A DNA stretch of 64,000 nucleotides from an uncultured virus (IMG/VR IMGVR_UViG_3300012012_001842) (lineage: Duplodnaviria; Heunggongvirae; Uroviricota; Caudoviricetes): the IMG/VR virus record IMGVR_UViG_3300012012_001842. One strand, written 5' to 3'. Under the pieces are notes generated by a model. The model was not told the DNA's origin, made no database searches, and saw only the letters and a list, made by a program, of their open reading frames with translations. The position numbers and the translations under genes are program-made. Positions 1,647 to 50,057 of the stretch are shown piece by piece; positions within the stretch are counted from its first letter, which is position 1, and each line of letters opens with the position of its first letter.

Positions 1647-3020
1647 GTGCGGATCATTCAGACCGCGAACCCAGCACTTCGCGAGCAGTGGCGAGACACA
1701 CTCGATCACCAACTGTTCGAGGCCAGTCACTGCCACGGGTTGATGTGCAAACGGGCCGACACGCCAGTCACGTCAATGGCCATGACCGGTCAGCTCTACG
1801 CCTCGAAGTCCGGCTGGCTGATGCTCGCTGTCCCCAACGCACTGGTACGCGGGGTGTTTCAAGCCCTGGACGAACCCGGCATCGAACTGCCTCTGGACTC
1901 AGACGGCAATCTGCTGGCGCACATCAGCGTTTGTCGCCCGAGTGAGCTGGCTCAACTCGGCGGAGTGGGGAAGATCACCGAACGAGGTAAGCGGTTCCAC
2001 TACACCGTCGGCGGCCTGAAGACCGTGAAGCCGCTGGGCTGGGAAGGCGTGTCGAAGGTCTGGATGTTGTCCATCTCCTCGCCCGAGCTGTCCGCGTTGC
2101 GCAGGTCTTACGGTTTGCCATCGCTGCCCACGCGGAACGGAGTGGAGCTGCCGTTCCATGCTACCGTAGCCCGGCGGGCTGTGGGGGTACTGGGCCGCAA
2201 CGAGGTCTCGAAGGCCGCCCGTTACATCACGCGTGAAGAACTGCTGACAGCGTCCAAGGACGTACACCCCAGTCCAACGCCAGGTCAGCAGGACGCGGGA
2301 AATTACGCCAAGGGGCACACCCGTCTGCACGGCTACGACATCTCGATCGAGAACGCCAAGGGTGGCAAGCGAAGCGGCATCGATAAGGGCGGGAAGGCGT
2401 GGTCGGTGACGATGAAGTCGCACTACGGTTACATCCGCGGCTCGAAGGCCAAGGACGGAGACCACGTCGACTGCTTCATCGGTGAGCATCCAGAAAGTGA
2501 AGCCATCTTCGTCGTCGATCAACGAGAGCCGGGGACAGGTGCCTTCGATGAGCCGAAGGTATTTTTTGGATTCTTGAACATCCAAGCGGCCAAGCAGGCG
2601 TACCTGGAGAATTACGAGGATGGCTGGAAGGGGCTGATGGCGATCACGCCGATGACCGTCTCGCAGTTCGATTGGTGGCTCGAACACGGCAATCAGAAGA
2701 AGCCTGTCTCGAAGCAGACCTTGAAGACGGCCGCCGACGTAGTGTTTCGTAAATTTTCCGGACGGGACGGCAGAACGTACGAGTACAAAGCCTTGTCAGT
2801 TGATCCAGGTCGCCGAGTAGAAGGCGACCTTGCTGGCGTTGATTGTCCAGAGTGCGGTTCAAACTGGACAAACAACTGCCGCTCGATGGTTGGCGACAAG
2901 CAGTGCCAGGCGTGCGGTAACATCTGGTCGTCAGCACGGAAGACAGCCTCTGCTAGGTCGCTTTCGCAGCTCCCTATGGATAGGCTCACGCCGCATTCAC
3001 TCGCCGCGTTCCTGTCATAA
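1647..3020 (+). CDS. Multidomain (polyvalent) protein: 2H phosphoesterase (Acb1-like fold) + phage InPase (inorganic pyrophosphatase-like) domain + Zn ribbon
   Basis: Two HxS/T motifs (AHISV, FHATV); GNYAKGH..ISIENAKG..RSG..W...M..HYGYI..DGDHVD.FIG..FVVDQ..FDEPKV..GF..AY.ENY..GW matches the polyvalent-protein InPase domain; CPEC...CQAC at the C-terminus. Confidence 0.75.
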   Translation: MRIIQTANPALREQWRDTLDHQLFEASHCHGLMCKRADTPVTSMAMTGQLYASKSGWLMLAVPNALVRGVFQALDEPGIELPLDSDGNLLAHISVCRPSELAQLGGVGKITERGKRFHYTVGGLKTVKPLGWEGVSKVWMLSISSPELSALRRSYGLPSLPTRNGVELPFHATVARRAVGVLGRNEVSKAARYITREELLTASKDVHPSPTPGQQDAGNYAKGHTRLHGYDISIENAKGGKRSGIDKGGKAWSVTMKSHYGYIRGSKAKDGDHVDCFIGEHPESEAIFVVDQREPGTGAFDEPKVFFGFLNIQAAKQAYLENYEDGWKGLMAITPMTVSQFDWWLEHGNQKKPVSKQTLKTAADVVFRKFSGRDGRTYEYKALSVDPGRRVEGDLAGVDCPECGSNWTNNCRSMVGDKQCQACGNIWSSARKTASARSLSQLPMDRLTPHSLAAFLS

Positions 3021-10518: not shown

Positions 10519-11473
10519 CGCCAAGTCTGAAGCTGCCACGCGAGAGATGATTCGGCATTGGCTCATGTACGGACTTGCAGGTGCCGGTGCCGGATTCGGT
10601 CTACGTGGGTTGGCCTCTGTAGACACGCTACTCAATCCACGCCCGATCGTGGACAACACGCCGTCGGGTCCGGTGACTGTGTCGCTCGGATCGCAGGCGT
10701 CAGAGCGGCCGCACGGCTGGATTGAGACCTCTGGTTACCGTCCGGCATACCAGCGTCAGTCTCCGTCACTTCTACCGTCTGTGAAGCTACCTCAGGCACC
10801 TGCCGCAGAGGAAAAACCGGAAAAGCAGAATAATCGGCCAACGAAGCAGGCGGCTGCTTCGATGTCAGGTGCCGCAAACGCGATTTACGACACGGTCATC
10901 AAACCGACAGGGCTGCATCGCGCCTTCGACTTTCCGTTCGGTAACATCACTGTCCCAGAAGCCAAGCCGTGGCATTTGGCTGGCGGTGTCGCTGCCGGGT
11001 ACGGAGCCGGCCGAGGGGCCTACGCACTGGCGGACTGGATGTTCAAGAAACGCCGCAACAACGAGCTCGACGGTGAGATGGCAGCGTCAGAGCAGGAGTA
11101 CCTGGACGCCGTCAAGGAACTTCGCGGCGTGAAGACTGCTTCGCTGGATAAAGCTCGCGAGCTGACCAAAACTGCCGCAGATCCTCCCGCCGTCAAACCT
11201 GATGCGATGTCGCTCTGGGGCGCTATTAAGGGGTTGATCTCTCCGCAGGATCGCGTCAACAACGTGACCGGCCCGATCGCCAATGGCTGGCTAGGGCTGG
11301 CAACTGCCGCCAGCATCCCCGCCGCTCACATTGGCTACAGTCTAGCCAGAGACAACAGCAACGCTCGCGCAATGCGAGAAGCCTTGATGCGGCGTCAGCG
11401 GGCGATTCAGAAGAGCCGCCCGGCTCCGATTGTGTTGACTCGACCTGACGGTGAACTCGAAGAGGCGATCTGA
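10340..11473 (+). CDS. Glycine-zipper protein with repeated K-x-A motifs (start uncertain, 10340-10547)
   Basis: GLAGAGAGFGL, GGVAAGYGAG, GWLGLATAA segments separated by SKAA, TKQAA, VKTAS, TKTAA. Confidence 0.6.
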   Translation: MTRPSMACTMCCTWNDTSPQNTVNSMSTLNGCRNTAPYRQPEALPIPASGLFTQSKAAVDAKSEAATREMIRHWLMYGLAGAGAGFGLRGLASVDTLLNPRPIVDNTPSGPVTVSLGSQASERPHGWIETSGYRPAYQRQSPSLLPSVKLPQAPAAEEKPEKQNNRPTKQAAASMSGAANAIYDTVIKPTGLHRAFDFPFGNITVPEAKPWHLAGGVAAGYGAGRGAYALADWMFKKRRNNELDGEMAASEQEYLDAVKELRGVKTASLDKARELTKTAADPPAVKPDAMSLWGAIKGLISPQDRVNNVTGPIANGWLGLATAASIPAAHIGYSLARDNSNARAMREALMRRQRAIQKSRPAPIVLTRPDGELEEAI

Positions 11474-11474
11474 C

Positions 11475-14400
11475 ATGCCAGGACTGGAACTTCCCGGACG
11501 CCCCGTTGACGATCCGGCGGCAGTCCGACAGAGCATCTTCGATCGAGCACTGGAAACGGCCTCCGCTATCCAGCCGGTCTCTAACGCCCGGCACACGTTG
11601 ACCGTTACCGATGCCGGTTACGAAGGTCCGGAGCGATTCTCTGTCAGCGCGCAGAAGAAGGCCATCCTCGAAGGCGGCTCTCTTGGTCGACGACTGCGCG
11701 GGACGCTCACGCTACAGGACACCGTCACTGGCGCTCCGGTAGCCACTCGCCGGGCGACGCTGGCCACGATCCCGTACTACACGGATCGAGGAACGTTCAT
11801 CGACAACGGTTCTGAGTACACGCTCGGCTCGCAGTTACGCATGAAGCCTGGGGTGTTTCACCGACAGAAGGACAGCGGCGACCTCGAAGCGCACGTTTCG
11901 ACACTGCCAGGCAAAGGTGTGCCGCATCGTCTGTTCCTCGACCCGAAGACTGGCGTGTTCCGCATCCGCGTCGAACAAGCCAACCTACCGCTCGTGCCGC
12001 TGCTGCAGGCCATGGGGATGAAGGACGCCGACTTTCGCGAGATGTGGGGGTCGGACCTCGCCGCCGTGAACTTGCAGAAGTCCACCGGAGCGGACGTTTC
12101 CAAGCTCTACCGCAAGATCGTCCGCAACGGCAAGTCGGACGATCCCAACACGCAGCGACAGGAGTTGGCTGCGGCGATGCAGAACACGCTGCTCGACCCG
12201 GACGTCAGCCGTCAGACGCTCGGGCAGCCGTTCGACCGGGTGTCCACAGATTCGATCCGCGCGAGCACGCGCAAGCTGCTGGCCATTCAGAATCGCGACA
12301 ACCCGGACTATCTGGCGAAGCACGGACTCGAAGCAGCCAGCCAGGATGATCGCGATCATCTGGCTTACATGATGTTGCACGGACCGGAGGACATGATCGC
12401 CGAGCGGTTGGGCCGCGGCTCTCGCATGCTCAAACAGGTGCTGTGGAAATCCGGACGTCGCAACAATCTGGATCACGTCACGGCCGGCATGTTCGACCGC
12501 GACGTTCGTAGTGCCTACCTCGGCAGCGGTCTGGGTCAGACCAGTGAATCGATCAATCCGCTGCAGGTCTTCGAGCAGCAGATGCGTGTCAGCCGTCTGG
12601 GCCAGGGGGCGATTGCCAACAAGTCCGCTGTGCCAAGTTCGAGTCGCGCCGTCCAACCGAGTTACCTGGGTGCCATCGATCTGATCACGACACCCGAGTC
12701 AGAAAGTGCCGGTGTCGACATTCGCATGGTGCGAAACCTGCGAAAAGGCCGAGACGGTGAGATGTACCAACGGGTGCGAGATGTTCGCACTGGGGAGTTG
12801 GTCTGGAAACAGCCCAAGGAGCTGCAGGACGCCGTGGTAGCCTTCCCGCGCGCCGAGAAGAACGCGTTCGAGACCAACGCCGGGATGCGTGTGCCTGCGA
12901 TGCGTGGCGGCAAAGCCAGCTACGTGCCAGCGGACTCTGTGCAGTATCAGTTGCCACACATGGAGCAGGCGTTCAATCCCACGGCCAATCTGGTACCGCT
13001 CAAGTCGGCCATGAAGGGTCAGCGGGTGGCGATGGGCGCTCGTTTTCTGACACAGTCGTTACCGCTGAACAATCCTGAGTCGGCTCTGGTGCAGAGCGGC
13101 GTGCCAGACGAGGACGACAAGAGTTACGACGAGTCACTCGGCGAACGCATGGGAGCTGTGCGGGCTAAGGCCGGCGGCCGAGTTCGCAATGTCACTCCAG
13201 ACGGTCTCGAAGTGCAGTACGACGACGGCACGACAGACATGGTGGAGCTGGCCTCACATCTTCCAGCCAACCGCAAAACCATGTTTCACCAGGAGGCGGC
13301 TGTTCAAGCCGGGCAACGCTTCGAGGCCGGGTCTCTGCTGGCGAAGAGCAACTACACCGACGCGAACGGGGTGACTGCGCTCGGCAAGAACGCCAGGGTC
13401 GGGTACATCAGCGCGCGTGGGAAAAATTACGAGGACTCGATTCTGGTCAGCCGCAGTTTCGCGGATCGGATGGACTCCAACCATCTCTACCAGTCTCCAG
13501 TCGAGATCAACCCTGACTCGCAAGTTGTAGGCCGCAACAAATTCCTGGGCATCTTCCCCGGCAAGTTCAACAAGCAACAGCTGGAAACGGTGGACGACAA
13601 TGGCGTGGTTAGAGTCGGACAACGAGTCGAGTTCGGAGATCCCCTGGTACTTGTGGCAGGACGACGACAAGCTCGGGTGGGTGAGGTCAGTCGATCCCGT
13701 GCTCATGCGTTCAGCGATCAGACGGAGACCTGGACTCATCACACACCCGGTATTGTTACCGATGTTGCCAAGACCAAAACCGGCTGGAACGTCGCCGTTA
13801 AAACAAGTGCAGTGATGCAGGAAGGTGACAAGGCAGCCAACCGCTTCGGCGGGAAGGGCGTCGTGAATGTCATCCCCGACGACCAGATGCCGATCGCCGA
13901 AGACGGACGGCCGCTCGAAGTCTTGATGAACAGTCACGGGATCATTTCCAGATCTAATCCTTCGCAGGCTATCGAGACCTGGCTGGGGAAAGTGGCGGAG
14001 AAAACAGGCAAGCCATACAAGATCAAGGATTTCGAGGACATCGACGACCTGGCTGGGTTTGCCCAGCAGGAGTTGTCGCGGCACGGACTGAAGGGGACGG
14101 AGACGCTCACCGATCCGGTGACGGGCCGCAAAATCCCTGGCGTGTTGACCGGTAGCACGTACATGTTGAAGCTGCACCACGTCAGTGAAGCCAAGGCGAG
14201 CGGTCGAACGTTCGGTCGCTACGACCAGGACGGCGTCCCAGCCAAAGGCGGAGACGATGGCAGTAAGACGTTCGGCATGCTGCACCTCAACGCGATTCTG
14301 TCCCACGGTGCCACGGGAGTCATCCGGGACGCCTCACTCGTGCGCGGACAGCGCAACAACGAGTACTGGGCGGCGGTGATGGCCGGACGCAATCCACCAG

Positions 14401-15884
14401 ACCCACCGACGCCGCTCGTCTACCAGAAGTTCGTCGAACAACTGCGGGCGACCGGTATCAATCCAAAGCGAGAAGGCACCCGCACTCAACTGATGGCTTT
14501 GACGAACGCCAACATCGACCAGCTCGCCGAGAATCGCGTGCTGGGAAACAGCAAGACCGTGGAGTGGCAAGACGACACGCTGCGACCGATCAAGGGCGGT
14601 CTGTTCGACGAGTCGCTGTTTGGCGGCGCTGCTGGCAACAGATGGGCACGGTTGCCATTGGTCGAGCCATTCCTGAATCCAGTGATGGAGCGTCCGGCGT
14701 TGAAGCTGCTTGATCTGAAGGAGCGGGAGTTCCGGGACATCATCGCCGGTCGAAAAGAACTCGGCGGCAAGACCGGTCCTAAAGCCATTGGCGACGCACT
14801 GTCGTCCATCAACATTGATCGCGCGATCGAGCAGGCGAAGATTGCCATCAAGAGTTCGCGATCCACGGTGCGCAACGCAGCCGTACAAAAGCTCGGCTAC
14901 CTGAACGGCGTCAAGCAGACTGGAGTGCCGCCGTCCGAGTGGATGTGGAACTCCGTGCCGGTCATGCCGCCACAGTTCCGCCCAGTCGGCAAGATGGGCG
15001 GCGGGGACGTGCCGTTGGTTTCGGATGCCAATTTTTTGTACAAGGATTTGTTTGACACGCACGAGAACTTGAAGTGGTCACGCGACAATCTCGGCGACCA
15101 CGGTGATGATCGGCTGGCCACCTACGACGCCATCAAGGCCGTCACTGGACTCGGCGATCCTGCACCTGTGAAGCTGCAGGAACAGAAGGTCCAAGGCGTG
15201 CTGAAGCACATCCTTGGGAACGGACCGAAAAACAGCATCGTGCAGCGTCGATTGTTGGGCAACAAGGTCGATCTGGTCGGTCGCGGCACGGTGCTCGCCA
15301 ATCCAGACCTGGGCTTGGACGAGGTCGCCATCCCGGAAGAGCAGGCGTGGAAGGTCTACCAACCGTTCGTGGTTCGCGAACTCGTCAAGCGCGGCTTGTC
15401 TCCTGCGAGGGCGGCTATCGCGGTCGCAGGCAAGCAGGACGTCGCCAAGCGGGAGCTGCTGGGCGTGATGTCGCAGCGGCCGGTGATTCTGGATCGCTCT
15501 CCGGTGTTGCACCGGTACGGCGTGATGGCGTTCTGGCCCAAGCTGACAAAGGGTAGCAACATCGAAACGAACTCGGCCGTGAACAAAGGCTTCACGCTCG
15601 ACCACGACGGTGATGCGATGTCGTTCCATGTTCCAGCCCACGCTGACGCTGTGAAAGACGCCATTGAGAAGATGCTCCCCTCCAAGAACCTCTTCAACGT
15701 GTCGCAGTTCAAGGTGCATCAGCTGCCGCAGCAGGAGTACCTCGGCGGACTGTACGCGGCGTCTACGGCCAGATCCGATAAGCGTTCGGCTGTGTTCGCC
15801 ACTCGTGCGGATGCTATAAAGGCTTACCACCGGGGCGAGATCGATCCCGGTCAACAAATTCAAATTGTGAACGAGAAGGAATGA
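11475..15884 (+). CDS. rpoBC: Phage RNA polymerase: beta subunit fused to the N-terminal (catalytic) half of beta'
   Basis: beta motifs: GTFIDNGSEY..SQLRMKPGVF, INPL..RVSRLGQG, TTPESESAG, QRVAMGA, GKNYEDSILVS, GDKAANRFGGKGVV, SRSNPSQ, YMLKLHH. beta' motifs: GGLFDESLFG, EWMWNSVPVMPPQFRP, LLGNKVDLVGRG, DRSPVLHR, catalytic DHDGD at 15600-15614, PQQEYLGGLY. Confidence 0.95.
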   Translation: MPGLELPGRPVDDPAAVRQSIFDRALETASAIQPVSNARHTLTVTDAGYEGPERFSVSAQKKAILEGGSLGRRLRGTLTLQDTVTGAPVATRRATLATIPYYTDRGTFIDNGSEYTLGSQLRMKPGVFHRQKDSGDLEAHVSTLPGKGVPHRLFLDPKTGVFRIRVEQANLPLVPLLQAMGMKDADFREMWGSDLAAVNLQKSTGADVSKLYRKIVRNGKSDDPNTQRQELAAAMQNTLLDPDVSRQTLGQPFDRVSTDSIRASTRKLLAIQNRDNPDYLAKHGLEAASQDDRDHLAYMMLHGPEDMIAERLGRGSRMLKQVLWKSGRRNNLDHVTAGMFDRDVRSAYLGSGLGQTSESINPLQVFEQQMRVSRLGQGAIANKSAVPSSSRAVQPSYLGAIDLITTPESESAGVDIRMVRNLRKGRDGEMYQRVRDVRTGELVWKQPKELQDAVVAFPRAEKNAFETNAGMRVPAMRGGKASYVPADSVQYQLPHMEQAFNPTANLVPLKSAMKGQRVAMGARFLTQSLPLNNPESALVQSGVPDEDDKSYDESLGERMGAVRAKAGGRVRNVTPDGLEVQYDDGTTDMVELASHLPANRKTMFHQEAAVQAGQRFEAGSLLAKSNYTDANGVTALGKNARVGYISARGKNYEDSILVSRSFADRMDSNHLYQSPVEINPDSQVVGRNKFLGIFPGKFNKQQLETVDDNGVVRVGQRVEFGDPLVLVAGRRQARVGEVSRSRAHAFSDQTETWTHHTPGIVTDVAKTKTGWNVAVKTSAVMQEGDKAANRFGGKGVVNVIPDDQMPIAEDGRPLEVLMNSHGIISRSNPSQAIETWLGKVAEKTGKPYKIKDFEDIDDLAGFAQQELSRHGLKGTETLTDPVTGRKIPGVLTGSTYMLKLHHVSEAKASGRTFGRYDQDGVPAKGGDDGSKTFGMLHLNAILSHGATGVIRDASLVRGQRNNEYWAAVMAGRNPPDPPTPLVYQKFVEQLRATGINPKREGTRTQLMALTNANIDQLAENRVLGNSKTVEWQDDTLRPIKGGLFDESLFGGAAGNRWARLPLVEPFLNPVMERPALKLLDLKEREFRDIIAGRKELGGKTGPKAIGDALSSINIDRAIEQAKIAIKSSRSTVRNAAVQKLGYLNGVKQTGVPPSEWMWNSVPVMPPQFRPVGKMGGGDVPLVSDANFLYKDLFDTHENLKWSRDNLGDHGDDRLATYDAIKAVTGLGDPAPVKLQEQKVQGVLKHILGNGPKNSIVQRRLLGNKVDLVGRGTVLANPDLGLDEVAIPEEQAWKVYQPFVVRELVKRGLSPARAAIAVAGKQDVAKRELLGVMSQRPVILDRSPVLHRYGVMAFWPKLTKGSNIETNSAVNKGFTLDHDGDAMSFHVPAHADAVKDAIEKMLPSKNLFNVSQFKVHQLPQQEYLGGLYAASTARSDKRSAVFATRADAIKAYHRGEIDPGQQIQIVNEKE

Positions 15885-16836: not shown

Positions 16837-16986
16837 ATGTTTCGAGGCTGGTTGAAGCTGCTGCCGTTCTTCGTCGTGGAGCGGCTCGCGCGGCGTTACT
16901 GTGCTCGATCGACTGTGGGTGACTGGCTGTCTGAGTCAGGTGTGTCTGTAAGTTTTCACACAACTGGAATGGTGCGACCATGCTGA
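16837..16986 (+). CDS. Possible 49-aa ORF (below ORF-track cutoff)
   Basis: ATG 16837, MFRGWLKLLPFFVVERLARRYC...; fills the gap and overlaps the next start. No RBS. Confidence 0.3.
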   Translation: MFRGWLKLLPFFVVERLARRYCARSTVGDWLSESGVSVSFHTTGMVRPC

Positions 16987-18845
16987 ACACCACGCTGGGA
17001 CAGCTGCTTGTGAACGAAGCGTTGCCGCCGACGCTGCGGGACTACTCCCGCACACTCGACAAGAAGGCCACGGCCGAGCTGTTCGAGCGTGTCGCGCGTG
17101 AACATCCCGAGCAGTACGGACAGATCTTGAAGCGGGTGTTGGATGTCGGCCGTGAGGTGTCCTACATCACCGGCGGCAACTCGTTCGGTACCGAGCATCT
17201 GCGGCCTGGTGCGGCGACGCAGGTCGCCCGTCAACGAATCCGCGAGGCTCGTCGGCAGATTTATGACGACGATGCTTTGGACGACGACGCGAAGCAGAAG
17301 AAGCTCATGGGTGTCGTCGAGACGGCGCGGGCGAAGATGGTTGGCGATCTCTACAAGGAGAGCCTGGCCGAGAAGAACCCGTTCGCGATGCAGGTGATCT
17401 CCGGGGCGCGGGGCAGCGACACCAATCTCAGCTCGTTGCGAGGCTTCGACGGGGCCTACGAGGACCAGAACGGCGACGTCGTGCCCATCCCTGTCACGCG
17501 GAACTATGGTGAAGGGCTGACACCGGTGGAGTATTTTGCCGGCACGTTCGGAGCACGTCGTGGTGTGACCGACGTTAAGCTGGGTGTGGCAAAAGCCGGG
17601 TTCACTGCCAAGCAGTTGTCGCAGCTGGCACATCGCCTGGTGGTGTCAGCGACAGACGATGACGAGGACACAGACAACTCCAGACGTCTGGGCCTGCCGT
17701 CGCCAATCGACGACAAGGACAACGAGGGGTCGTTGCTGGCGATCGATCACGGACCGTACAAGCGCAACACCATCGTCACGCCGAAGATCGCCCGAGACTT
17801 GCAGAAGTCCGGATTTGACGAGTTGCTGCTTCGCAGTACGACAGTCGGAGGTCCGTCGGATGGTGGCGTTTACGCCAGAGACGCCGGTGTGCGCGAGCGG
17901 GGCGGTGTGGCTCCGCTGGGTGACTACATCGGCATCGCAGCGGCTGGGTCGATCTCAGAGCAGCTGACTCAAGCCGGGTTGAATTCAAAGCACAAGGGCG
18001 GAATCGCCGGCTCGGGTCCTTCCGGTTACGAGTTGCTGAGTCAGCTGGTGCAAGTACCTGAGAACTTCTCTGGTGGCGCGACGCACGCACAGCACGACGG
18101 GCACGTACAAGACATCCGCGAGGCTCCGCAGGGTGGTCAGTTCGTCACGATCAACGGTGAAGAGCACTACGTTCCGGCAAACCTCAAGCTGAGCGTTAAG
18201 GCTGGAGACACTGTCGAAGCGGGAGACACGATCAGCGCCGGCGTCCCCAATCCGTCTGAGATCGTCAAACACAAAGGGATTGGAGAGGGTCGTAAATACT
18301 TCACGCAGGCGTTTCGCAAGGCGTACGAAGAGTCCGGCATGCGATCGCACAGACGCAACATCGAACTCATCTCGCGCGGTTTGATCGATCATGTGCGAGT
18401 GACTGAGCCGTGGGAGAACTATGCGCCGGACGACATCATTCCCTATCGTGAGGCTGCCTCATTGTGGGAGCCGCGGGCTGGCTCGGCGGCTGTCGCACCG
18501 CAGAAGGCGGTTGGTAAGTATCTCGAACGGCCCACGCTCCACTACACCGTCGGTACGAAGATCAAACCGTCGATGCTCAAGACACTCGACAAGTTCGGTG
18601 TGACAGGGGTAGAGGTGCATGACGATCCGCCACCGTTTGAACCGGACATGCAGCGGGCGATGGCTTCCATCTCGACAGATCCTGACTGGATGACGAGAAT
18701 GCTAGGCAGCGGACAGAAAACCAGTCTGCTGGACGCCGTACATCGCGGAGCGGTGTCGGACACGGAGAGTACGAGTTACGTTCCGTCGCTGGCGATCGGA
18801 ACACCGTTTGGCAAGACGCCGCTTACTCAGGGATGGAAACCGTAA
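16980..18845 (+). CDS. rpoC: Phage RNA polymerase beta' C-terminal half (bridge helix, trigger loop)
   Basis: TTLGQLLVN, SGARGS, NYGEGLTPVEYF..TFGARRGVTDVKL..AKAGF (bridge helix), GIAAAGSISEQLTQAGLNSKHKGG (trigger loop), VEAGDTISAG.PNP, RRNIELISR. Confidence 0.93.
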   Translation: MLNTTLGQLLVNEALPPTLRDYSRTLDKKATAELFERVAREHPEQYGQILKRVLDVGREVSYITGGNSFGTEHLRPGAATQVARQRIREARRQIYDDDALDDDAKQKKLMGVVETARAKMVGDLYKESLAEKNPFAMQVISGARGSDTNLSSLRGFDGAYEDQNGDVVPIPVTRNYGEGLTPVEYFAGTFGARRGVTDVKLGVAKAGFTAKQLSQLAHRLVVSATDDDEDTDNSRRLGLPSPIDDKDNEGSLLAIDHGPYKRNTIVTPKIARDLQKSGFDELLLRSTTVGGPSDGGVYARDAGVRERGGVAPLGDYIGIAAAGSISEQLTQAGLNSKHKGGIAGSGPSGYELLSQLVQVPENFSGGATHAQHDGHVQDIREAPQGGQFVTINGEEHYVPANLKLSVKAGDTVEAGDTISAGVPNPSEIVKHKGIGEGRKYFTQAFRKAYEESGMRSHRRNIELISRGLIDHVRVTEPWENYAPDDIIPYREAASLWEPRAGSAAVAPQKAVGKYLERPTLHYTVGTKIKPSMLKTLDKFGVTGVEVHDDPPPFEPDMQRAMASISTDPDWMTRMLGSGQKTSLLDAVHRGAVSDTESTSYVPSLAIGTPFGKTPLTQGWKP

Positions 18846-47637: not shown

Positions 47638-49263
47638 GTGGGTTGGTCCTCTATCAAAGTTCGAGGTCGCCTGCTGATTGGCGGTATTGGCGGTATTGGC
47701 GGTCACGAGTTCGACACCACCATGGCGTCGATCGCTTACGAATTGAACAGCATCCCACAAGCCACGTTTGCGGTGGAGATTGGTCGAAACGCTTCCAAGA
47801 AATTAGAGTCGGCCGCGATTCACGCGGCGGCTGGTTATCTATCCGCTGAGACGAAACTGAAGTACGAAGTCAAACTCGACTACATGGACGGCTCCGGAGT
47901 TCGTGACGACCTGCCGAAAGGCTGGACGACGCTGTTCGAGGGCTACCTCATTGGCGTGTCTTGGCAGAAGCTCTACGGCAACGCCCAAGTTTTGCTGCAC
48001 GCCAGGAACTGGCTGTTAGACATGGACTACTCGTCGGCGCTCAGTGACAGCAGTCATCCTACAAATCCAGCTCAGTTCAGTTTCAAATCCGTGTCCGCTC
48101 CAGCGGGTACAGGATTAAATGCAGTCGGCTACACGCCGCTGGCTGCTATGTCAAAGGCCGTCGGTTCTGGCATCCAAAACGACTTCTGGAAGGAGGGTCT
48201 CTACAAGCTGTTTAAGGTATTGACAAGTAGTGATCAAATCAACGCCGCAGAGGTGGGCATAACCGGAAGCGGCCCTAACAGCGTAGCCAACTCAGCATTG
48301 GATCGATTCGTGTCAACCGCCGGCCTCCCAGCCAACTACGTGCCGCTGAAATTCAATAGTCACGGTGCGGACGCAGGCCGTGTGACGACCGCCATCACAG
48401 ATCACATCAGCCAGCAATCGTTCGAGTCGTTCGCCAACACAACGCTCTGGGGCAAGCTGGTCGGTGAGTACGTCCCGCTCTACATGATTGCTGTCGTACC
48501 TCGTATCAGCGACGCCTTGGTTATTCCGTACGTACCTGGACTGAGGAGGACGCACGATAAGATGCTCAGCGGCGACGACTACGCTGTGGTAGCGTCCAAC
48601 TCGGAACTGCAACGCACGTTGCGCGGCGTGGGCGTATTCGCCGGTATCAGCTGGATGACCGGTGCCGACATGTCCCCTGGAGGATCTCCAAAGGCACAAG
48701 GCATCGGCGGTTGGTACTCGCCAAAAGACGCAAAGCGAGGCACGGTTCTGTTTCGCGAAGCGCCGCCGTGGCTGGCAGGTATGACCGTGCGTCACCCAAG
48801 CACGGCTAAGGCATGCGGCAGCGGCACGAGTCCGATCGGCACGGCGTTCACACCAGGGGAGTCGGCCTCCGCGGACGCACCAGCAGACGCCACGGCACCG
48901 GAGAACGTGGAGCGGAAAGCGAAAAAACTAGCAGACGCTTACGCCGAGTCCTTGTACGTCTACGAGCTGCTGCGATTGAGGCACGTCGAATTCGGCGGTA
49001 AGCTCCGCTTCGACATCGCCCCTGGCTCCACGATCAAGGCTGAGATGATCGGGGAGAAGTTCGTCGAAGAGGACAATCTGGCGCAAGACATCGTCGGCGA
49101 TGTGCTGCGCGTGTCGTACGTGTTCGACAGTGAGAATTCGCGAGCTTCGACCAATTTCAATCTGGCGCACGTCCGGACCGAGCAGGAGAATGCCAACGAG
49201 GGCTTCTCCTTGGAACATCATCCGTTGTGGCAAGAATCCTGGGCGGGAGCAGGCTTACTTTGA
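47638..49263 (+). CDS. Baseplate hub (gp27 / late control D-like)
   Basis: LNSIPQATF, LFEGYL.G, GKLRFDIAPGSTI, G.V.RVSY; synteny. Confidence 0.6.
   Translation: MGWSSIKVRGRLLIGGIGGIGGHEFDTTMASIAYELNSIPQATFAVEIGRNASKKLESAAIHAAAGYLSAETKLKYEVKLDYMDGSGVRDDLPKGWTTLFEGYLIGVSWQKLYGNAQVLLHARNWLLDMDYSSALSDSSHPTNPAQFSFKSVSAPAGTGLNAVGYTPLAAMSKAVGSGIQNDFWKEGLYKLFKVLTSSDQINAAEVGITGSGPNSVANSALDRFVSTAGLPANYVPLKFNSHGADAGRVTTAITDHISQQSFESFANTTLWGKLVGEYVPLYMIAVVPRISDALVIPYVPGLRRTHDKMLSGDDYAVVASNSELQRTLRGVGVFAGISWMTGADMSPGGSPKAQGIGGWYSPKDAKRGTVLFREAPPWLAGMTVRHPSTAKACGSGTSPIGTAFTPGESASADAPADATAPENVERKAKKLADAYAESLYVYELLRLRHVEFGGKLRFDIAPGSTIKAEMIGEKFVEEDNLAQDIVGDVLRVSYVFDSENSRASTNFNLAHVRTEQENANEGFSLEHHPLWQESWAGAGLL
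47677..47703 (+). repeat. 9-bp perfect tandem repeat x3 (IGG)
   Basis: attggcggt x3. Confidence 0.75.
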
Positions 49264-50057
49264 ATCCAGCAGACAACGACGATTTGTTTCAGCGGATGCT
49301 GTCGCCGCCGAAGGCCCCTAAACCCCAGGCCGCTAGCAGCCGCAATCGGCTGGAGCCGGAGTACGAACCGCACTTTACCGCCTGGAAAGCGGCTCCGTCC
49401 CCGCAGACCAACTCCAGCATGCTGAGAGCCATCTCGCCCATCATCGACTCGGCAGTAAAACCTTTGGGAGGGTCGCCGCTACTGTACGGACAGGCTCGAC
49501 GCATCGCCGTGCAGTCGTTGGCGGGGTACGACCCGGAGCGGGCCAGCCTTAAAACGCACCTGATGTCTCAGCTGCAGGGGCTGAAGCGATTGTCCGCCAA
49601 CCAGGACGAAATCATTCACGTCCCTGAACGTCAGCGTATGCAGCGCAAGCACCTGGCCGACACAGAACTCAACCTGCGAGACTCACTCGGGCGAGATCCA
49701 GACGACACAGAGCTGGCCGACGCATCCGGCGTCGGTGTTTCGCAGATCGTCAAATTGAGAAAACTGACACGTCCTGTGGCAGAGAGCGCTTTCGGATTCA
49801 ACGATGACACGGACGCCACGCCAGGCATGCAGAGTCGTCCGAACCTGACGTTGCTGCACTCGTTTGTGCGGGATGACATGTCACCGACAGATAGACTGGT
49901 GTTTGACTACGCCACCGGGGCCAACGGTCGTGATAAGCTGGAGCCACGAGAAATCGCCAGACGTCTGAGCATCACGCCTGGTGCTGTCAGTCAAAAACTG
50001 GCAGCTGTTCAAGCCCGGCTTAATGAGCTGGACGACCTGTCCTTGCTGGGAGAATGA
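49260..50057 (+). CDS. Sigma70-family RNA polymerase sigma factor
   Basis: Region 2 YDPERASLKTH, IIHVPE; region 3 LGRDPDDTELADASG; region 4 HTH MSPTDRLVF..G..EIARRLSITPGAVSQ; TTGA overlap with the hub stop. Confidence 0.85.
   Translation: MNPADNDDLFQRMLSPPKAPKPQAASSRNRLEPEYEPHFTAWKAAPSPQTNSSMLRAISPIIDSAVKPLGGSPLLYGQARRIAVQSLAGYDPERASLKTHLMSQLQGLKRLSANQDEIIHVPERQRMQRKHLADTELNLRDSLGRDPDDTELADASGVGVSQIVKLRKLTRPVAESAFGFNDDTDATPGMQSRPNLTLLHSFVRDDMSPTDRLVFDYATGANGRDKLEPREIARRLSITPGAVSQKLAAVQARLNELDDLSLLGE

Follow-up and report, generated by a model that had tools for sequence, protein, structure and literature searches.

A family-wide RNA polymerase active site without N458, R933 and F935 in an uncultured tailed phage and its Arash-like relatives

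Given that the catalytic loop of an RNA polymerase encoded by an uncultured virus (Caudoviricetes, IMG/VR record IMGVR_UViG_3300012012_001842) reads FTLDHDGD in place of YNADFDGD, we questioned whether this spelling and the changes in two further motifs are genuine, whether they are peculiar to this phage, and what they imply for substrate selection. The window, meaning the whole stretch of 64,000 nucleotides that was analysed, bears tailed-phage marks (sheath, baseplate and tail-fibre matches) and is part of a genome, with no match to the PF07068 capsid protein among 42 window proteins scanned. The runs containing half or more of the window DNA (8 of 20 listed) were lake or freshwater metagenomes, and no RNA data set was listed among those with the window's sequence.

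The polymerase is encoded as two chains. ORF A (11451..15884, + strand) joins RNA polymerase beta and the N-terminal part of beta' in one chain (PF00562, PF00623 and PF04565; PDB matches; profile map). It comprises 1477 aa from a GTG start, database copies beginning at an ATG 8 codons downstream (1469 aa), and in the profile map it spans E. coli beta 113-1339 and beta' 160-550, the first 1000 residues matching beta and the last 390 matching beta' 160-550. ORF B (16980..18845, +; 621 aa; PF04998 and PF05000) is the C-terminal part of beta' (E. coli beta' 572-1289), and carries the bridge helix (17541..17618, +) and trigger loop (17967..17993, +). Homology to the bacterial subunits (E. coli, T. 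thermophilus) is collinear, with the same fold and all core catalytic residues; however, beta' is split in the window, and its first 159 residues have no counterpart in the profile map. The structure model of ORF B (pLDDT 87.6; helices at 182-216 and 317-339) matched T. thermophilus beta' best (TM 0.72), while a model of the catalytic fragment (pTM 0.47, rmsd ~16 A to cellular beta') gave no usable active-site geometry; there was no Arash-like family structure among the PDB matches. A sigma70 region 3-like protein (49227..50057, +; PF04539, E 9e-6), encoded far from the polymerase genes, is a candidate specificity factor. A tRNA-Gly predicted by ARAGORN inside this sigma-like gene (49348-49418, antisense) is probably spurious. 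Elsewhere, the protein encoded at positions 1647-3020 combines an inorganic pyrophosphatase domain (PF18823) with a 2H phosphoesterase-like part.

This layout, a beta plus beta'-N fusion of ~1450-1530 aa and a separate beta'-C of ~620 aa, is that of an informal group we call Arash-like. The closest cultured relatives sharing it are Salmonella phage Arash (gp206 and gp216, OQ632216) and Vibrio phages D69, D148 and D181, with 30-32% identity over 96-98% of chain A and 27-28% in chain B. Neither ORF A nor ORF B contains cysteine, as is the case for 115/115 chain-B and 97/109 insert-free-length chain-A homologues, whereas Arash and D69 do have Cys. Arash is a viable phage, and mass spectrometry placed both chains among the five most abundant particle proteins, with a sigma factor also present in the particles (PMC10585845). 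Virion packaging is known for Arash only. The Arash paper annotates beta and beta', and its accessible portion says nothing of the fusion or the motifs (PMC10585845).

Translation bore out the three altered motifs described in the earlier note. Positions 15585-15626 translate as KGFTLDHDGDAMSF, in which the catalytic loop FTLDHDGD (15591..15614, +; beta' 457-464) reads Y457F, N458T, A459L, D460, F461H, D462, G463 and D464 in E. coli numbering (profile map), and all three Asp residues are indeed retained (15600-15614). The trigger loop TQAGLNSKH reads Q929, L930A, T931G, M932L, R933N, T934S, F935K and H936, and the beta motif GDKAANRFGGKG (13824..13859, +) retains the catalytic lysines K1065 and K1073 with G1068N, H1070F and N1072G (both by profile map). 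Also retained are R425 (15495..15497, + strand; motif ILDRSPVLHR), the main 2'-OH selector, and beta E813-D814 (13431..13436, +), the second metal site. In the bacteria compared, NADFDGD, TQLT(M/L)RTFH and GRHGNKG are fixed, and the window differs from them at each.

The motifs are not products of misassembly, which had been named as a possible refutation. They are the same in all six members of the 90% cluster of ORF A, one of which differs at 37 other substitutions, and in 3/3 members of that of ORF B (in each case one member is the window's own protein). Contigs from three of the four runs compared (4 of the 20 listed, the possible source run being excluded) span each of the catalytic loop, trigger loop and beta motif, with no differences inside the motifs, and 10/13 coding differences between strains in those runs were synonymous. 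Error or gene decay could draw on the rarity of the T458+H461 pair (1/267 nearest rows) and of N933 (1/122 nearest rows), both found only in the window's own lineage; however, strain variants and contigs from other runs share the motifs, most differences are synonymous, and the open frames have lengths typical of the family, all of which makes this explanation extremely unlikely. Four synonymous differences, grouped in bridge-helix codons at 17579-17630, belong to a second strain of one run.

We assessed how far each residue is shared among homologues. The chain A tally of 267 rows consists of the best 120 of 762 matches, 145 new representatives (from the best 150 of 4724), Arash and D69, one of these rows being almost the same protein as the window's; the chain B tally of 122 rows consists of the best 120 of 951 (including the window's own), Arash and D69. 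Both tallies therefore describe nearest matches, not the entire family, the chain-B set being the less diverse, and smaller denominators give the rows covering a site. The bacterial reference set comprised six genera or species (E. coli, B. subtilis, Nonomuraea, Collinsella, Parabacteroides and Subdoligranulum). Among the nearest rows the catalytic core was close to invariant, both on the beta'-N side (R425, P427 and G463, each 267/267) and in beta (K1065 243/244, K1073 247/248, D814 243/243, E813 235/243, R1106 245/255, H1237 251/256), as well as in the trigger loop (Q929 and H936, each 122/122), and the window polymerase has every one of these residues. With its DxDGD triad, two beta lysines, D814, R425, bridge helix and trigger loop, it is a two-barrel multisubunit RNA polymerase; with T458, L459, H461 and K935 it departs from the canonical cellular enzyme, which has N458 and F935. 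Intact frames, the complete catalytic core and the predominance of synonymous differences support the earlier proposal of an active enzyme, and the polymerase is very probably functional. At 353 columns invariant in six bacteria the window keeps 45% (family median, 47%), and its chain A is an ordinary family member, only the exact T458+H461 pair being unique among the 267 nearest rows.

Position 458 proved variable. Among the 267 nearest rows it was Gly in 165, Asn in 77, Ala in 14, Thr in 8 and Ser in 3, such that N458 is absent in 190/267, with 63 changes at this position on the tree. Position 461 was Phe in 210, His in 24, Tyr in 19, Asn in 7 and another residue in 7. The suggested survey of N-to-T and F-to-H thus found both substitutions outside the window (T458 in 8/267 and H461 in 24/267 nearest rows; 7 and 17, respectively, of the 145 more diverse representatives). 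Of the 247 rows covering the beta motif, 9 have canonical GRHGNKG and 24 have NRxG(G/S)K. T458 required 7 changes for 8 tips. For its 24 tips H461 needed 19, a value that shuffles also reach (mean 23, minimum 19), which rejects H461 as a single inherited innovation. The motif called universal in the earlier note is so in cells, but not in phage enzymes, as cultured YerA41 (FNLDYDGD) and Arash (YAADYDGD) illustrate. Other rare changes of the window lineage in chain A were P451S (3/267 nearest rows) and A426S (7/267).

H461 did not vary alone, a co-evolving set with N454 and L459 that the earlier reading overlooked. It accompanies L459 (13/19 versus 11/247 rows) and N454 (13/15 versus 11/252), the L459+H461 pair arises at 11 separate places on the tree, and independent pairs of H461 and N454 changed in the same direction 5.5 times and in the opposite direction never. 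The co-varying upstream residues, T449 to N454 (A1373 and A1378 in ORF A), are encoded at 15567..15584 (+). Median p values from independent pairs on the FastTree tree were borderline (N454, 0.03; L459, 0.06; T449, 0.5). Position 454 is Cys in 6/6 bacteria and Asn in the window, and A459 has been described as belonging to the barrel's hydrophobic core (bioRxiv 10.1101/2024.06.20.599782). The coupling of H461, L459 and N454 suggests local repacking, in which a polar N454-H461 contact may replace Cys/Thr-Phe packing while Leu459 fills space. The exact FTLDHDGD spelling is one of many interchangeable or tolerated versions.

Changes in the trigger loop were far more uniform across the family. Among the 122 nearest rows, position 933 was Ser in 113, Gly in 7, Ala in 1, Asn in 1 and Arg in none, N933 occurring only in the window's own lineage, and position 935 was Lys in all rows but one (121/122), the exception having Arg. 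K935-H936 without R933 was likewise found in 26/26 IMG/VR loci (those of 28 whose trigger loop fell inside the retrieved stretch). The true family signature is F935K together with loss of R933, and the family has moved the basic trigger-loop residue from 933 to 935. As K935 is so fixed it must serve some function, and it probably takes over the phosphate or bridge-helix contact of R933 by another route. Loss of N458 and the trigger-loop Lys are family-wide and not peculiar to this phage.

The bridge helix also carries family-wide replacements (A787K in 119/122 and R798K in 122/122 nearest rows), together with rare changes in the window (K789G and T790V, 4/122 nearest rows each); K789 is lost while K787 is present. 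Q921G is confined to the window lineage (1/122 nearest rows). Rare residues, T790V, Q921G and R933N among them, are more numerous in ORF B than in 93% of its 120 nearest homologues, which is the sole sign of the window phage being unusual within its family. Two of the trigger-loop residues have precedents elsewhere: M932L and R933N correspond to yeast Pol II L1081 and N1082 (PMC5737373), Leu at 932 also occurs in Parabacteroides, and Taq M1238L behaves near wild type (PMC5127505). F935 (F1084) was not found in the accessible portions of PMC7862312, PMC5737373, PMC5127505, bioRxiv 10.1101/2024.06.20.599782 or PMC3424550. Further family-fixed replacements of bacterially invariant columns lie near the cleft, at ORF A residues 410, 939 and 1265 (beta C559D and Q1268K, beta' R339Q) and ORF B residues 200, 211 and 212 (A787K, R798K and R799Q).

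Comparison with other polymerases indicates how this active site is distributed. Arash and D69 resemble the window in having lost N458 (A458), changed F461 (Y461), K935-H936 and a retained R425, whereas Arash keeps GLHGNKG and A459, and its bridge helix diverges. The mReC enzymes also come from tailed phages in aquatic metagenomes and align to COG0085/COG0086, but have a separate beta, a beta' of 887-1391 aa in 90/90 rows examined and, in the accessible material, no ~620-aa partner (PMC7481178). Membership in that group was rejected on gene layout, as the window has no separate full beta and beta'; among the mReC enzymes the NADFDG motif is described as conserved (PMC7481178). YerA41 shares L459 and a changed residue 461 in its loop FNLDYDGD (L042:1556-3226), with Y461 where the window has H461, and Vibrio phage Va2 shares the K935-H936 trigger loop (TQLGLRSKH; L043:5512-9090). 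However, YerA41, Va2 and RHph_Y65 have other subunit splits and all retain N458, RHph_Y65 being canonical at the catalytic and trigger-loop motifs. A distant group (L045 and L046) has beta and all of beta' in one chain (2559-2594 aa with intein), with near-canonical trigger loops (TQLAMRTFH and TQLAMRGFH) that retain F935. We found no paper on the active-site motifs of the Arash-like family, subscription journals being mostly outside the search, and no enzyme assays of the family in the accessible literature; the accessible parts of several further sources gave background only and nothing on these motifs (PMC12619734, PMC7824862, PMC7618050, PMC9508822, PMC3424550, PMC1635734 and PMC5050341).

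All three flagged motifs are intein insertion sites in relatives, a point missed in the earlier reading. Among resolved chain-A inteins, 49/212 lie directly after D464, making the catalytic loop the busiest intein site of the family, and 14 lie in the beta lysine motif; 3/4 resolved chain-B inteins lie between 932 and 933, and two of these three trigger-loop carriers are the closest relatives of ORF B among the best 120 of 951 matches. The window itself has no inteins. A third intein clade at the catalytic-loop site has no N-terminal nucleophile (P0151, P0153, P0163, P0172, P0187 and ~12 more), its members starting with Q, A, E, D, L, G or Y, ending with Ser-Asn or His-Asn, and resembling class 2 or 3.

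Insertion at this site is accompanied by changes to the triad itself. Where an insert follows the loop, a triad Asp is encoded as Asn in 31/54 rows (24 D464N, 6 D462N and 1 D460N), versus 0/213 where none does, so that the third-Asp-to-Asn change is not alignment noise, the alleles being real and all at intein junctions. In the intein tree (n=52, with 3 candidates unresolved, one of them a further D464N case), Asn occupies -1 in 23/23 members of a clade of Cys-start, Asp-end inteins, while their Ser-start, Asp-end relatives keep Asp at -1 (6/6), and D462N accompanies 6/6 members of a clade that starts with Ser and ends with His-Asn. The D464N inteins comprise 24 proteins (P0122, P0127, P0136 and 21 more) and 5 loci of 2 sequence types (L044-L048); P0122 shares a 6-member clade with the window's protein. 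The D462N group consists of 6 protein records (P0133, P0144, P0149, P0156, P0184 and P0188), and D460N of P0243. An Asn in the triad ruins the E. coli enzyme, Asp at -1 promotes premature intein cleavage, and Asn-Gly deamidates fast. D464N beside an intein suggests either splicing-linked deamidation or tolerance. Neither a second RNA polymerase copy nor PCMT repair explains the Asn allele, as the only complete genome having it (G005, 178 kb) encodes one RNA polymerase and no PCMT.

Because all three motifs are insertion sites, their changes could be read as escape mutations from intein homing endonucleases. The trigger-loop intein in the two closest relatives of ORF B needs Ser933, Asn at that position is found only in the window phage among the 122 nearest rows, and Ser, Thr and Cys are absent from the +1 positions of all three motifs in the window. 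As a general cause, however, homing escape was rejected: proximity to an intein site (7 residues or fewer) did not raise the frequency of change at bacterially invariant columns (104 near versus 194 distant columns, p 0.55), nor did it in a constrained subset (p 0.37); H461 is not rarer beside an insert (8/54) than without one (16/213); and there is no shared or conversion tract around H461, upstream of the site, identity over 1372-1382 being 0.43 where 0.48 would be expected. We consider this explanation of the motif changes quite improbable, although it may account for N933 alone.

The consequences for substrate selection are best judged from characterised enzymes. The ribose contacts are R425, N458 and Q929, with R425 the major determinant in E. 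coli; R425K reduces selectivity by 17-fold at the binding step and by 25-fold at incorporation, whereas for N458S a ~4-fold loss at binding is accompanied by a 1.5-fold improvement at incorporation, and M932A has mixed small effects (PMC7862312). Selectivity or fidelity may be altered, as the earlier note proposed, but this is weaker and less special than envisaged there, given that R425 is retained and the effect of N458S is small. As R425 and Q929 are both kept, a few-fold relaxation would be expected, and the most likely outcome appears to be a working enzyme whose dNTP discrimination is at most modestly relaxed. The single-mutant data may understate the sum, as several rare changes (P451S, A426S, T790V, Q921G and R933N) are stacked around the site.

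A much greater loss of sugar and base selectivity, through the loss of N458, R933 and F935 and tolerated by or useful to a lytic phage, would have its precedent in the plant polymerases Pol IV and V, which are active without the N458 equivalent (N479) and with altered trigger loops, and whose dTTP discrimination is over 60-fold and 4.5-fold worse, respectively, than that of Pol II (PMC5737373). The family-wide extent of these losses (122/122 nearest rows without R933 and F935) and the additional lineage-specific changes near the site fit such an enzyme. Pol IV and Pol V, however, are Pol II offshoots with 3/4 NTP-contacting trigger-loop positions changed (PMC5737373), while Q929, L932, N933 and H936 of the window match Pol II, and R425 and Q929 are invariant in the family. 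Moreover, N458 was regained repeatedly (77/267, 63 changes), which fits near-neutrality and not a fixed new specificity, and the enzyme must transcribe the mRNA of a ~200 kb genome as the single RNA polymerase (3/3 complete relatives), so that we regard Pol IV-like relaxation as doubtful. The region matching beta' 572-705, including the rim helices, which we take to be the Gre site, is present in the window and counts against an active site tuned to factor-independent proofreading by intrinsic RNA cleavage, as might suit an injected enzyme that does not use host Gre. Such tuning has support from E. coli N458S, Y457F, A459T and R933A, each of which stimulates intrinsic cleavage, but R933N and M932L, both present in the window phage, lower it (bioRxiv 10.1101/2024.06.20.599782). 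Proofreading thus fits the family consensus (G458, F457 and S933) better than the window phage, and we hold it to be very unlikely. A more thorough rebuilding of nucleotide selection is conceivable, although we think it unlikely: K935, together with the K789 to K787 shift, would be the main phosphate-positioning or general-acid residue, triad Asn beside an intein would be tolerated or restored by splicing-linked deamidation, and the enzyme would differ more than 10-fold from cellular RNA polymerase in its use of dNTPs or modified NTPs or in proofreading.

We instead favour, as the likely reading, a working two-chain, bacterial-type Arash-like RNA polymerase with the usual two-metal mechanism, ribose selection by R425 and Q929, a repacked floor and a relocated basic residue. 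The Asp triad would bind Mg2+, and beta K1065, K1073, D814, R1106 and H1237, together with Q929 and H936 of the trigger loop, all of which were observed, would work as in cells. R425 and Q929 would carry ribose selection, N458 being dispensable in the Arash-like family at a probable few-fold cost in dNTP discrimination, judging from E. coli N458S. H461 would not be a catalytic novelty; it would belong to a repacked barrel floor (N454-L459-H461) that has arisen several times, and the basic residue, moved from 933 to 935, would probably keep its phosphate or bridge-helix contact by another route. As Arash packs its enzyme into particles, the K935 trigger loop and N458-less floor are directly assayable.

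The lasting result is an active site, shared across the family, that lacks N458, R933 and F935 and has a fixed K935. The three missing residues are regarded as fixed parts of the cellular RNA polymerase active site, and hundreds of natural phage enzymes do without them while keeping R425, Q929 and H936. Such enzymes are an evolutionary test of whether R425 alone carries ribose selection, and reveal the irreducible core of the active site. If sugar selection is relaxed, a two-chain, largely cysteine-free polymerase would be useful for the synthesis of modified RNA.
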